A DNA stretch of 64,000 nucleotides, taken from IMG/VR virus record IMGVR_UViG_2913167280_000003, positions 1 through 64,000 of that record, one strand, 5' to 3'. The notes under the pieces were generated by a model. The model did no database searches and had not been told where the DNA came from. It saw only the letters and a list, made by a program, of their open reading frames with translations. Position numbers and translations under genes: made by a program. Source of the stretch: a virus (lineage: Duplodnaviria; Heunggongvirae; Uroviricota; Caudoviricetes). Of the stretch, positions 7,725 through 63,384 are shown in pieces. Each line of letters begins with the position of its first letter. Position 1 is the stretch's first letter.

Positions 7725-7745
7725 ACAAGTGACTAGTGTTAAATT
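7725..7745 (+). promoter_or_regulatory. P1-type late promoter candidate upstream of prt
   Basis: ACAAGTGACTA, 4 nt, TAAATT, about 40 nt upstream of the prt start. Same architecture recurs upstream of other late operons in this window. Confidence 0.45.
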
Positions 7746-7787
7746 CCGTTCAAACACGATGCGAATTATTCTAATTAAGGTGCAATC

Positions 7788-9497
7788 TTGGCAGACAATA
7801 AAATCACGCTATCCTCGGTCAGGAAGGCGCTGGCGGGGGTTTTTAAAGACAACGGAGAACGGGACAACATCCTCCTGTCCGCGCTGGCTGTGCACGGCGG
7901 AAGTGGGTATTTGTTTTCTCGCGCAGGGGCACCGGTACAACTGTCCGGCTTCTTAGGCGGCAAACCGGGCGATAGTGGCATGGCTGGCGATGGGCTGGTG
8001 GACGGTAGTCGCTTTATCTTTGATGAAGTTCAACTGTCGGAAGACCGCTTGCAACGCTATCCGCTACTCGAAGAGATGGCGGTTTACAGCACGATCGCCA
8101 CCGCGCTGAACATCCATATTACGCACGCGCTCTCTTTCGATAAGAAGACCGGACAAACCTTCACTATCGTGCCGGTACACAACGGAAACGATAGTGACTA
8201 TGACGCCGCGCAGACGTTGTGTGACGAGCTGATGAACGACATCGGGCGAACCATCAACAAAGAGGTCGCCGGGTGGGCATTTATCATGTCTGTATTTGGG
8301 GTGGCTTATGTCAGGCCATACGCCAAAGAAGGCATAGGGATCACGTCTTTTGAGTGCTCCTATTACACCCTTCCGGGCTTCATCAAAGAGTTCGAGGTCA
8401 GCGGCAACCTGGCGGGATTTAGCGGCGATTATCTGAAGGATGCGTCAGGAAAAATGGTTTTCGCCGATCCGTGGACCATTATCCCTATGAAAATCCCCTA
8501 CTGGCGGCCTAAGTCAAACCTTATGCCTGTGCACACTGGCCATAAGGCTTACAGCCTGCTGGATAATCCGGAAGAGCGCACACCGATTGAAACTCAGAAT
8601 TACGGGACCAGCTTGCTCGAATATGCCTACGAGCCGTACATGAATCTGCGTTCGGCGATCCGCTCGCTGAAGGCAACGCGTTTTAATGCGTCGAAAATTG
8701 ACCGAATCATCGGTCTGGCGATGAATAGTCTGGATCCGGTAAAAGCAGCCGATTATTCACGCACCATTACTCAGACGCTTAAACGAGCAGCTGACCTGAT
8801 GGAAAAGCGCGCACGCGGCGCGAATAACATGCCTACGGTGACCAATACCCTGCTTCCCATTATGGGCGACGGCAAGGGGCAAATGACGATTGATACTCAG
8901 ACCATCCAGGCTGACATCAACGGCATTGAAGACATTCTCACCTATATGCGCCAGCTGGCGGCAGCTCTTGGCCTCGATTACACCCTCCTGGGGTGGGCAG
9001 ATCAAATGTCCGGCGGGCTTGGTGAAGGTGGCTTCCTGCGCACGGCAATTCAGGCAGCCATGCGCGCCTCATGGATCCAGCAGGGCGTAGAAGAGTTCAT
9101 TCAGCGGGCTATCGATATTCATCTTGCTTTCAAGTACGGCAAGGTCTACCCGGAAGGTGATCGCCCGTACAAAATCGAATTCCACTCCGTTAATACCGCT
9201 CTGCAACAAGAGCACAACGATAACCGCGACTCGCAGGCGAACTACGCCACCATCGTTACGCAAATCCTCGATGCCGTCAGCAATAACAGCGTCCTCGCCA
9301 ATTCTGATGCTTTCAAACGTTACCTGTTCAGCGATGTGCTGGAGATTGACGAAAAAATCTCTGAAGCACTGGTGAACGAACTGAAAGCTAAAAGTGAGGA
9401 CGACGATCACCTGATGGATTCCATCATCAAAACACCGCCACAGGAACTGGCGCAAATCCTTGAATCGGTCTTTAAAGAGGGAAACGATAATGACTGA
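7788..9497 (+). CDS. prt: Portal protein (Prt-like)
   Basis: 569-aa ORF divergent from darB and followed by an overlapping protease/scaffold-like gene. Assigned by size and synteny with P1 prt-pro; TTG start in the ORF track. Confidence 0.5.
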
Positions 9498-10509
9498 TGT
9501 TTTGAAAACGGTCACTGACCGCTTTTGTCTCTATAGCAATGCTCGAAAAGGTCGCCAGAACGGGCGACAGTATGTATTAAGCGCGGTTAAGACCATGCTT
9601 GAAAGTAAGGAAACTCAGGAAGGTTTACGCCTTGGTGAGCTTTTCGGCTACTACGGCCACGGTCGCCGACAGCTGACAGGCAAACTGGAGGTACCAGAAA
9701 CCAGCGTGATCATGGTGGAAGGTCGCCCGGTCGTTATCGACAATGTTCCAGCTTGCCGCACAGTGGCTATATCCGTTGACGACAACGGCATCGTTACCCA
9801 TACACAGGAAATTCTTAACACAGAGCCGGGTAAAATTGTCGCCGCGATGATCGAAAGCCGTGCTGGTGGCTGGAGCTGGGCCACTGGCGGGCGCGAGTCC
9901 GGGAAAATCGCTGTAACCACCAGCTTCCATGGTGTGGATTATGTGACAACGCCGAACTATATCAGTCTGGATCATCCGGCCAGCGCCGGAATGTTTGAAA
10001 GCGCGGATTCTAAATCTCTACTGGCAGAGTCCCTGGCGGCGCATGGATACTCTGACGAGTCAGTGCAGGCCGTTATATCCCATTACAGTAAAATGGCTGA
10101 ACTGGAAATGATGGTGGAGGCGACAGAGCGTACGGCAGAGCTGGAAACCGCACTACTAGAAAGCCAAGGTCGCCACCTTGAAGCAATGGCCAAGATCGCA
10201 GATGCTGAAGCGCGAATCGCTTTGCTGGAGAAAACAGCGGGTATCCGCGACGATGTGCTGGCAGCGATGCAAGACGAACTGGATAACCTCCCGATCTTCG
10301 TCTCCGCCGCCCAAAAAGACGCATTCCGTCTCAAAGAACCTGGTGATGCAAAAATCGTAGCCACACTTTTCGAATCTCTGATCAAAGTTGGCGCTCGCAA
10401 CTTGCCTGTCACCAAGAAAATTAAGGAAGTTCCGCAAGCGGCTAACGTCCAGGCACCGCGTGAGACAAGCATCATCTCGTTTAATAATTCAATCAATCCG
10501 TTTAAATAA
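9490..10509 (+). CDS. pro: Head processing protease/scaffold-like protein (Pro-like)
   Basis: ATG at 9490 preceded by a GAGGGA RBS and overlapping the prt stop; coiled-coil-rich C-terminal half. Synteny with P1 pro. Confidence 0.45.
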
Positions 10510-10522
10510 CCACCAAAAATAA

Positions 10523-60873: not shown

Positions 60874-61882
60874 TAACCACTCCTAACTGCGCACGGCTGA
60901 CAAAACGGAAGCGGTCTTCGAAATGAGTCACGGACATCACTATCATTTTGTCGGGGATAGATTCATCGAGTTCTCCGTCACCTGCCGTGTTATGCACGAC
61001 AATTTTCAGCGTGGTACCCGGAGTGAGCGCGGCATTTCCTTCCACCAGCATATCGAGGCGGGGGAGAATGAATTTGTTGTAGTTCGCCAGCGCGGTAGGA
61101 TCGGGATTGCTCGTAAATTTAATGGGGTCTTCCTGGTTACCTGAGTAAACCACACCTTTGGTCATGTCATAACTGGCCATTCTGTAATTGTGGCGGCGCT
61201 GGTATTCATAATCGGCATTCAGGATGTTGAACTGACTAATTGTAAATCCGGATGTATTGGGATTGGCGGACTCATAAGTAAGCGATGGAGCGGCGTTTGC
61301 CATTTTTTCCATACTTTTAAAATTAATCGTCCCCCTGGATGCCCAGCACATAGAACCGGTATCCTGGGCTATCTCCTGCAATACCTTGGTCGGTTTTTCT
61401 CCAACATTTAGGTGGTATGTGGATGTCTTTCTGAATGAATCAGCATTTACCTTCAGACCAGGGGCAAGAGTGGAAACTACGGCTGATGGGGGCTTATCAA
61501 CAAAATACTGTGCGCTGGTGGACGGAACTTTCAATAATCGCACCGGGTTACTAAACGCGTAAATCAGTACGGTATCGTCCTTGCGCGGCGCTTTAAGAAC
61601 GAAGAACTCTTCCGAGAACAGGATGCCGCCATGACCTTCCGGATCACCAAGTGAAACTGTCAGTATTGTTCCAAATTTCACCCCCAGCTTATTGACCACG
61701 TAAGCCGTTGAATCCCTGACCATGAGCATAAGCTGGGGACCAGATAGCTCCCCAGGTTCGACATAGGTACATCCTACAATCATTTCGCGAGGAATTTCGT
61801 TCTGCCCAATTGAAACAGATTGCAGGAATAGCTGAGTGCGCTTTGAATCAGTTTCCGGGGCTGTGGTGGTCTTTGTGGCCAT
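60866..61882 (-). CDS. Baseplate/tail morphogenesis protein
   Basis: 338-aa ORF in a tightly packed minus-strand structural operon. Confidence 0.4.
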
Positions 61883-61883
61883 C

Positions 61884-62687
61884 TCATTCCTCCAGAATTT
61901 TCGCTTTTACCGTTATGGTGCCGGTGGTTTGCTGCATATAAGCCAGGATAGGAAGCTCCGCCACAACGGTGAGGTTCAATCCAACCGCGAACAGCCTGTT
62001 ATCGGCGGTGCCGGTGGTCAGATCCTGAAATGCGATTGATTTTTGCCCTTCGATGTAACAGGTAACCGGTATCTCATAACCGCCGATATTGGCAATGTGA
62101 GTGAAAGATGCCTGCCCGAGGCTGGCATACATTCGTAGCCAGAATGCTAATGCAGTTGTAACCATCCCAAGAGATTCCTTCTCGACACTGGCGATCCATA
62201 GCGAATATTCCAGTGAGAAAGGGATAGTCGATACCAGGGCTTCAATCTCATCATTTTCATTGGTGACGTGTCCTTCATCGTAATTATCCCGACACAGTTC
62301 ACCTTCATAAATTGAAAACGCGGGAGAACGAGACAGATTCACAAGCGGCATTGCCAGCTTATTTACCGGGCCAGAAGAGACTGTATCTTTACGCCCGGCG
62401 CGATCGGCTTCAAATGACGACAACCACTCCTTCACATCACTAAAAGTGCCGAGCGTTATGCGATCTCTTGGGGTGCGTTTCAGGAACTCCCTGAATGACT
62501 GGTTAGTGCGATCATTAAAGCTGACAACTTGTGAGTCGAACGCTTCGTTTAAAGCCTGTGCGAGCGCCGAATCAATGCCATCAATAGTGGCAAATTCCAG
62601 CTTGCCAGTTGGGGTTAGACCTTTTTTCTTAAAGATGGCCAGTAGCCATTCCTGATTATTCAGAATCACCGATGAAATTCCCTTCAA
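61884..62687 (-). CDS. Tail/baseplate morphogenesis protein
   Basis: 267-aa ORF in the same operon. Confidence 0.35.
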
Positions 62688-63384
62688 AGGCGCGTGAAGG
62701 CACGCAATAAAACAAACTGCCTACCCTGGCAGTGCCGTAATTGAATATTTTATGGATGTACCAGAAGCGGCGAATGGTTGTGCCGTCTGACAGCTGTTCC
62801 AGCCATTCGAGCATAGAACCCACTGGCACATTAACGGCGGCTAACCGAAGGATTAAAGCACTGTCGCTAATCCCTGTATTATCACTGCCGTCGTATAGCG
62901 CGTAGAAGGCGTCCATCTCATCCGGGCAGTCGAGGGCCGTTATCAGTTCTGGATCCTGATAGTCATATATGCGTTGGTTAGGTTCTATTATTTCCGATGC
63001 TGTTTCAGGTGCATTTTTGTCTCTGTAAGGTATTGCGCGATACAGAACCGCATCGAATGAGTCAGGGTCTAGCTTGATTGCTTTGAGCCAGTCCATCCGC
63101 ACAAGATTATTAAATATTGCATGGCCTTCATAACGGTGGCGCACACCAGAGTCACTAAGCAGGCCGTGATCCAGATTGGGACGGTGATTGTCCTCCACAT
63201 GATCAACAATATTACCAACGTTAACACCATCGGTTTCGATTTCAGCATCAATATCTTCCTCTTCAATCAGTTCAGAACCTTCGCCTGGAATATCCGGATC
63301 CGATTCGGTGTCCGGGAGGTTATCACCAGTCACTTGTTGTGATGGTTCTGTGTCCTCAAACATGTCATCAAAGAAACCAGCCAT
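62656..63384 (-). CDS. Acidic structural-operon protein
   Basis: 242-aa ORF with an acidic N-terminal third; a late-promoter-like motif lies inside its 5' end (63317-63337), so the start may be mis-assigned. Confidence 0.35.

Follow-up and report, generated by a model that had tools for sequence, protein, structure and literature searches.

Phage P1 has 11 late promoters, and the 9-bp inverted repeat that they carry is the Lpa site (PMC10695390). Lpa (gp10) is described as a sequence-specific DNA-binding activator that acts with host SspA and RNA polymerase (PMC1891329; also PMC8198154 and PMC8201110). SspA is described as associated with RNA polymerase and as not itself binding late promoter DNA (PMC1891329, citing Hansen et al. 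2003). In the P1 GenBank record (AF234172), 11 features are annotated as 'late promoter LP...', namely LPmat, LPpro, LPlyz, LPdar, LPs, LPsit, LP23, LP26, LPpmgL, LPhot and LPpac, and each consists of a '-22 region' of 9 bp and a '-10 signal', separated by 4 nt. The consensus that we extracted from them is (A/G)AC-AAGTGACTT-N4-TAnnnT. The Ps and Pdar promoters were reportedly first defined by Guidolin et al. in 1989 (cited in PMC9025707) and Lehnherr et al. in 1991/1992. When the literature was searched for start-site or transcriptome data for P1, and for the names of the promoters, nothing usable was found. Here, we describe sites of this type in a 64,000-nucleotide stretch of a Caudoviricetes virus (positions 1 to 64,000 of IMG/VR record IMGVR_UViG_2913167280_000003), which is called the window below. 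The feature is already known: these are the textbook late promoters of P1, here in one of its close relatives.

Late promoter motifs in a P1-like phage-plasmid

Because the whole of the window is collinear with positions 9759-77462 of P1 at 94-97% identity, we identify it from its sequence as a P1-like phage-plasmid (plasmid prophage). The collinearity is broken by replaced blocks at 20665-24024, 34337-37520, 41036-42226, 47752-50128 and 58022-60403. A 5-kb piece around the first site is approximately 97% identical to Punavirus genomes that include P1, P7, SJ46 and RCS47.

An initial annotation of the window had reported a recurring arrangement of ACAAGTGAC(T)(T), 4 nt and TANNNT and had likened it to the late promoters of P1. 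This arrangement is the canonical P1 motif, read from 2 nt further upstream. The recurrence is real: a search of the window for ACAARTGAY-N6-TANNNT returned seven matches where 0.04 were expected, at 7725-7745 on the plus strand and at 11447-11467, 26023-26043, 34283-34303, 35678-35698, 47635-47655 and 63317-63337 on the minus strand, all of them where they had been reported. The plus strand had been named for the first of these, upstream of prt, and correctly so; every other site is in fact on the minus strand. Two of the ranges originally given, 26023-26046 and 47635-47659, contain the motif and end 3-4 nt past it. The canonical P1 pattern with at most one mismatch has eight matches in the window, with 0.70 expected.

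The motif scan that the initial annotation had proposed was run within the window, using a 22-position position weight matrix (PWM) trained on ten P1 late promoters with canonical spacing and a background of 300 first-order Markov simulations. Eight matches scored at least 17 bits, with 0.07 expected, and as the next best match reached 14.9 bits the score distribution is cleanly bimodal. The eighth site, at 19992-20013 on the minus strand upstream of lydA, is the orthologue of LPdar and had been overlooked because its box is preceded by GAG and so lacks the leading AC.

A short AT-rich word standing beside a loose TANNNT could recur through chance or base composition and have no regulatory meaning. 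The bare 9-mer ACAAGTGAC shows no enrichment when one mismatch is allowed (13 matches, 11.6 expected) and TANNNT alone is common, hence the 9-mer alone is not the signal. However, the exact 9-mer is present four times (7725+, 26035-, 47647- and 63329-) where 0.38 copies were expected, and none of 100 shuffles reached four. The shuffles rule out an artefact, and the counts for the full architecture and for the PWM speak against one. The spacing is also invariant, six of the sites lie between genes and share the direction of late operons, and the set has orthologues among the annotated P1 promoters and is conserved in Cronobacter phage JK004. We therefore regard a chance origin as vanishingly improbable.

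When the eight sites were aligned, information was confined to positions 1-11, 17, 18 and 22 of the 22-mer. As the flanks are unrelated, we conclude that the sites share a short functional motif and are not copies of a dispersed repeat. All eight carry the 9-bp imperfect inverted repeat of the -22 box, with the consensus AAGTnACTT, and in 8/8 a TANNNT -10 lies exactly 4 nt 3' of the box. The boxes of LPdar, LPs and LP23 match AAGTNACTT without mismatch, those of LPpro, LPlyz and the site in gene 7 have one mismatch, LPsit has three and its duplicate, LPsit', has four; P1 LPsit and P1 LP26 have two each. The box usually follows (A/G)AC. The -10 hexamers are TAAATT, TATCCT, TACCAT, TACAAT, TAGAAT, TAAAAT and TAACCT, and no site has a -35 hexamer 16-18 nt from its -10, the best match to TTGACA there being 1-2/6.

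The genes prt, lyz, lydA, R, pmgC and 23 are each preceded, at a distance of 29-89 nt, by a co-oriented site, and these six sites are positional orthologues of annotated P1 late promoters, with the same architecture and the same downstream operons. The likeness to P1 put forward in the initial annotation thus holds, the sites upstream of prt, lyz, R-S-U, pmgC and gene 23 mapping base-for-base onto LPpro, LPlyz, LPs, LPsit and LP23. Over the 22 nt, four of the six (LPpro, LPlyz, LPdar and LP23) are identical in P1 and the window. The window differs from P1 in having an additional, truncated copy of LPsit, while the copy inside gene 7 is found in both and is unannotated in P1.

The LPpro orthologue (AAC-AAGTGACTA-gtgt-TAAATT; 7724-7745, plus strand; 27.7 bits) is identical to P1 LPpro (17251-17269) and lies 43 nt upstream of the start of prt (portal) at 7788; on the basis of annotated orthology it would drive prt-pro. 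The LPlyz orthologue (AAC-AAGTGATTT-gcat-TATCCT; 11447-11468, minus strand; 24.9 bits), identical to P1 LPlyz (20969-20987), precedes lyz (about 10801-11358, minus strand), lydD and lydE. The remaining four are also on the minus strand. The LPdar orthologue (GAG-AAGTTACTT-tgca-TACCAT; 19992-20013; 21.0 bits) is identical to P1 LPdar (31212-31230) and is found 29 nt upstream of the GTG start of lydA at 19963, from where it would drive lydA-lydB-hdf-darA-ddrA-ddrB.

The LPs orthologue (GAC-AAGTGACTT-ctct-TACAAT; 26023-26044; 29.5 bits) corresponds to P1 LPs (38318-38336), from which it differs at the centre of the dyad, where the window has G and P1 has T, and at one spacer base. It lies 31 nt upstream of the start of R at 25992 and would drive the R-S-U tail-fibre operon. 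A GC-rich hairpin (CCCCGTCCGCCGGGCGGGG; 26046-26064) is found immediately upstream of it, at the end of the sit-16 operon. The LPsit orthologue (GAC-AAATGACAA-ctcg-TAGAAT; 34283-34304; 19.4 bits) corresponds to P1 LPsit (46608-46626), in which the box is AAATGACTA and not AAATGACAA, and is 32 nt upstream of the ATG of pmgC at 34251; its operon would be pmgC-tub-pmgB-sit-pmgA-bplA-16. The LP23 orthologue (AAC-AAGTGACTT-tcaa-TAAAAT; 47635-47656; 27.7 bits) is identical to the P1 'predicted late promoter LP23' (58825-58843), lies 52 nt upstream of the TTG start of gene 23 (major capsid) at 47583 and would drive 23-22-21-pmgG-bplB. Two tandem copies of GAGTAACTT at 47573-47594 span the Shine-Dalgarno (SD) sequence and start codon of gene 23, and each is a near-perfect -22 box on either strand. 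These may be extra Lpa sites or a coincidence; P1 has only one intact copy.

As the box is a dyad, like many operators, and as C1 operators are scattered over P1, some of them near late promoters, the motif could instead mark a dispersed repeat or serve as an operator for some other regulator, for instance the C1 repressor or a late system of the P2 Ogr or T4 gp55 type. Similarity between the sites ends at the edges of the 22-mer, however, and no longer repeat is present, while the C1 operators are annotated at other positions and have a different, 17-bp sequence. Late promoters of P2 and P4 that depend on Ogr/Delta have a dyad, TGT-N12-ACA, centred near -55. The dyad found here is centred near -22, 4 nt from the -10, and there is no conservation further upstream, which excludes the sites from that class. 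They do not belong to the T4 late promoters either, as none of the -10 hexamers matches the extended -10, TATAAATA, recognised in the gp55-type system. The P1 record and PMC10695390 both assign the box to Lpa, and we consider a different operator or a repeat footprint very unlikely.

Several points weigh against reading the sites as late promoters. The two that are not placed upstream of a late operon are a high-scoring site inside gene 7 and LPsit', which is followed by a truncated pmgC remnant and no intact gene, and for this reason presence of the motif is not by itself proof of promoter function. The cognate activator was not seen, as tblastn found no copy of lpa (P1 89991-90443) within the window, the P1 locus being outside the part of the genome that the window covers. 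Promoter activity in the window is predicted from its sequence. We nevertheless hold with high confidence that the sites are Lpa-dependent late promoters of a P1-type phage-plasmid.

The dependence on Lpa and SspA and the positions of the start sites are taken from the literature. On that model, the early protein Lpa (gp10) would bind the -22 box and, together with host SspA on RNA polymerase, would substitute for the missing -35 contact. Initiation by the E. coli sigma-70 holoenzyme would then take place approximately 7 nt 3' of the -10 and be restricted to the late phase of lytic growth, and the operons switched on would be those for portal/protease, lysozyme, holin-dar, tail fibre, tail tube/baseplate (sit) and capsid/sheath.

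Predicted late promoters in JK004 and D6

An lpa gene was found in P1, in Cronobacter phage JK004 (MZ188976) and in phage D6 (MF356679). JK004 is a diverged, P1-like relative, with a gp7 that is 75-77% identical to that of the window and an Lpa that is 59% identical to P1 Lpa. Its late promoters are unannotated and are predicted here: when the P1-derived matrix was applied, sites were found upstream of the homologues of prt, lyz, R, pmgC, 23, 26 and pacA, with the same type of box and the same spacing as in P1. When the two sequences were aligned pairwise, the boxes formed islands of conservation within intergenic DNA that has otherwise diverged, including at LPpro and strongly at LP23. JK004 differs from P1 in that several boxes have C at positions 1 and 11 (CACAAGTGACC), and its -10 hexamers are also different.

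The annotated Lpa homologue of D6 is only 26% identical, and the P1-derived matrix finds almost none of the D6 sites. A different element, AAATCACAA-N6-TAnnnT, occurs 12 times in D6, 11 of them on the minus strand. Most are upstream of late or virion-associated genes, namely prt, lydA, R, pmgB, 23, gene 7, mat, ddrA, upfC and darB; examples in MF356679 are at 25221-25241, 31511-31531, 38115-38135, 54124-54144, 67393-67413 and 72100-72120, all on the minus strand. The D6 late promoters predicted in this way share the P1 layout of a 9-mer box, a fixed short spacer and a TAnnnT -10 with no obvious -35, and precede the same late operons, but the box is AAATCACAA where P1 has AAGTGACTT. That the box changes where the activator changes is as expected for a cognate, co-evolving pair of box and activator.

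The copies in gene 7 and at the LPsit duplicate

The initial annotation had placed a further copy inside the 5' end of the open reading frame at 63317-63337. This copy is present, and the open reading frame is tail gene 7 (62656-63384, minus strand), of which the candidate late promoter (AAC-AAGTGACTG-gtga-TAACCT; 63317-63338, minus strand; 20.9 bits) occupies nt 47-68. An identical, unannotated site is found at P1 76780-76801. Transcripts starting from it would run from within gene 7 into genes 24, 6 and 5.

One account of this copy is that it is a coincidence, kept by the protein sequence QQVTGDNL, and that 7-24-6-5 is expressed only from LP26, upstream of gene 26. The 11 late promoters annotated in P1 do not include the site (PMC10695390), full-length gp7 could not be made from a transcript starting there, and its -10, TAACCT, is the weakest of the set with a 3/6 match to TATAAT. 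No in-frame internal start for a shorter gp7 was found by eye downstream of the site. On the other hand, the gene 7 site was not part of the PWM training set, and a score of 20 bits or more is expected only 0.01 times per window. Its 20.9 bits also equals or exceeds the leave-one-out scores of the P1 promoters LPmat (16.8), LPdar (10.9), LPpac (18.7), LPlyz (20.2) and LPs (20.9).

Conservation can be read either way. At the corresponding position, JK004 has CAC-AAATGACCG-gtga-TACGCT, which keeps all 11 high-information positions (ACAA-TGAC and TA...T) despite five substitutions in the 22-mer, an outcome with a chance probability of approximately 0.02-0.04 at a local identity of approximately 70-75%. 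The bases that have changed to C, at positions 1 and 11, are also C in JK004's own LPpro. Yet with the P1-derived matrix the JK004 site reaches only 6.4 bits, and the DNA could have been conserved because of the conserved residues T-G-D-x-L-P.

A scan of IMG/VR returned 80 loci, all 97-100% identical. Polymorphism was followed in 81 P1-like sequences, 50 of them unique. Among the 50 unique haplotypes, two positions of the 22-mer vary, where approximately 1.8 were expected, and diversity is too low to show constraint; both single nucleotide polymorphisms among the P1-like contigs are, however, in the free NNN of the -10. When contigs were searched with gp7, only near-identical relatives were returned. 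A blastn search of plasmids with the 5' end of gene 7 revealed no lineage of intermediate divergence among the matches listed, and a further five records at 80-90% identity lay outside these. In D6, a predicted late-type promoter immediately precedes gene 7, where an inserted RelE/HigA toxin-antitoxin module separates gene 7 from gene 25. The wider family thus includes a case in which 7-24-6-5 form a late unit of their own.

Overall, we give coincidence slightly better than an even chance. The copy in gene 7 probably binds Lpa too, with somewhat less than even odds of being a working promoter, and tentatively we regard it as a plausible, as yet unproven, candidate for a twelfth late promoter.

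The second site without a late operon is LPsit' (AAC-AAATGATAA-ctcg-TAGAAT; 35678-35699, minus strand; 17.5 bits), which is followed by the first approximately 20 codons of pmgC. The initial annotation had listed this duplicate as sharing the one-base variant ACAAATGAC, but it actually has ACAAATGAT, a two-base variant. The segment at 35606-35699 matches P1 46536-46629 with 93.6% identity. LPsit' reads through remnant open reading frames and is antisense to a gene at 34481-35374 (plus strand) that encodes a DUF4760 membrane protein (Pfam E = 9e-14) and lies between the two copies of LPsit.

These copies flank part of an accessory island that replaces the P1 sim region at 34337-37520. In addition to the DUF4760 gene, the island includes a gene for an SH3-domain protein (35800-36984, minus strand) and sim-like fragments at 35429-35599 and 36971-37435 (minus strand). 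Its best matches in the phage, plasmid and E. coli collections are 92% identical over 83-85% of the region. In a related plasmid, NZ_CP074905.1, this DUF4760 gene is surrounded by a larger duplication, in which the second copies of pmgC and tub are complete and that of pmgB is partial. As this larger duplication surrounds the same gene, LPsit' looks like a relic of a tandem duplication of the pmgC region that flanked the inserted DUF4760 gene and has since decayed. If active, it would produce RNA antisense to the DUF4760 gene during late infection. Between LPsit and the DUF4760 gene, at 34446-34463, is a hairpin that resembles a bidirectional terminator (ACGCCCTTTAATGGGCGT).

Predicted hairpins, weaker sites and implications

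Inverted repeats are present at LPdar (19964-19991), LPsit (34252-34292) and LP23 (47584-47634), all on the minus strand, such that the SD of lydA, pmgC and gene 23, respectively, can pair with a stretch that coincides with the predicted start or lies just 5' of it. The arms are CCTCCT/AGGAGG at LPdar, CTCGTAGAATC/GATTCTACGAG at LPsit and CTCTTCC/GGAAGAG at LP23. Folding was used to predict the probability that the SD is unpaired in the late RNA and in RNA reading through from upstream, and the fraction of controls with shuffled upstream sequence that were at least as paired was recorded. At LPdar, the predicted probability falls from 0.36 in the late RNA to 0.00 in the read-through RNA (shuffle fraction 0.007), and at LPsit from 0.42 to 0.16 (0.03). 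At LP23, the corresponding values are 0.67 and 0.20 in P1 (0.07) and 0.79 and 0.12 in JK004 (0.01), whereas in the window they are 0.62 and 0.47 and the difference is not significant. JK004 has compensatory changes in the LPsit and LP23 stems.

No such effect was predicted at LPpro, LPlyz, LPs, LPmat, LP26, LPpmgL, LPhot or LPpac. A hairpin that sequesters the SD is thus rejected as a general property of late promoters, as it reaches significance at no promoters other than LPdar, LPsit and, in P1 and JK004, LP23. These three are the promoters that are preceded by co-oriented non-late genes (lydC, the sim region and parB), with expression in the lysogen for at least some of these genes, and a position after lydC, sim and parB would suit a role in blocking translation from read-through transcripts. 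This is like the control of gene e (lysozyme) of T4, where, as reportedly described by McPheeters et al. in 1986, a late start inside the hairpin frees the ribosome-binding site. The likeness lies in a late start inside or after a hairpin that frees the ribosome-binding site, and here it comes from folding predictions only. To our knowledge, gating of this kind has not been described for P1.

Taken together with the site in gene 7, these predictions suggest a wider scheme, in which the gene 7 copy would be a working promoter that boosts 24-6-5 independently of LP26 and the hairpins at LPdar, LPsit and LP23 would gate the holin, tail and capsid genes. We consider this combined scheme rather unlikely. 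If it were true, read-through RNA of the holin, tail and capsid genes would be untranslatable, and Lpa-initiated transcripts alone would be translated.

Three weaker or unusual sites were also seen, all on the minus strand. A perfect core, AAGTGACTT-tagc-TAGCAT, at 40177-40198 lies antisense over the first codons of repL and points into kilA. A core with no mismatch is expected 0.03 times per window, and P1 has CAGCAT at the -10 of its repL site. This might be a late antisense promoter directed against the lytic replicon, or chance. The next-best PWM match (AAC-GAGTGAATA-tcga-TAGCAT; 14.9 bits) is at 19680-19701, inside the 3' end of lydA and approximately 35 nt ahead of lydB. P1 has the identical site (30900-30921), and approximately 0.2 such matches are expected by chance. 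Just upstream of ppfA, AAC-AAAGGACTT-caca-GATAAT (52606-52627; 11.6 bits) has a -10 that begins with G, not T, and recurs at the same position in P1 (63962-63983) and JK004 (23653-23674).

For the phage-plasmid itself, the outcome is that the late transcription units of a P1-like element, one of a group that often carries resistance and defence genes, are correctly marked, and the P1 late promoter motif can be transferred by sequence to close relatives. This has little importance beyond annotation, and the picture of late gene control is unchanged. What is new is limited to one candidate extra promoter, a relic copy and possible gating by SD-sequestering hairpins at three promoters. For P1 specialists, the gene 7 candidate, the relic promoter, the gating and the D6 box are small additions that could refine the transcription maps used in P1 vector engineering.

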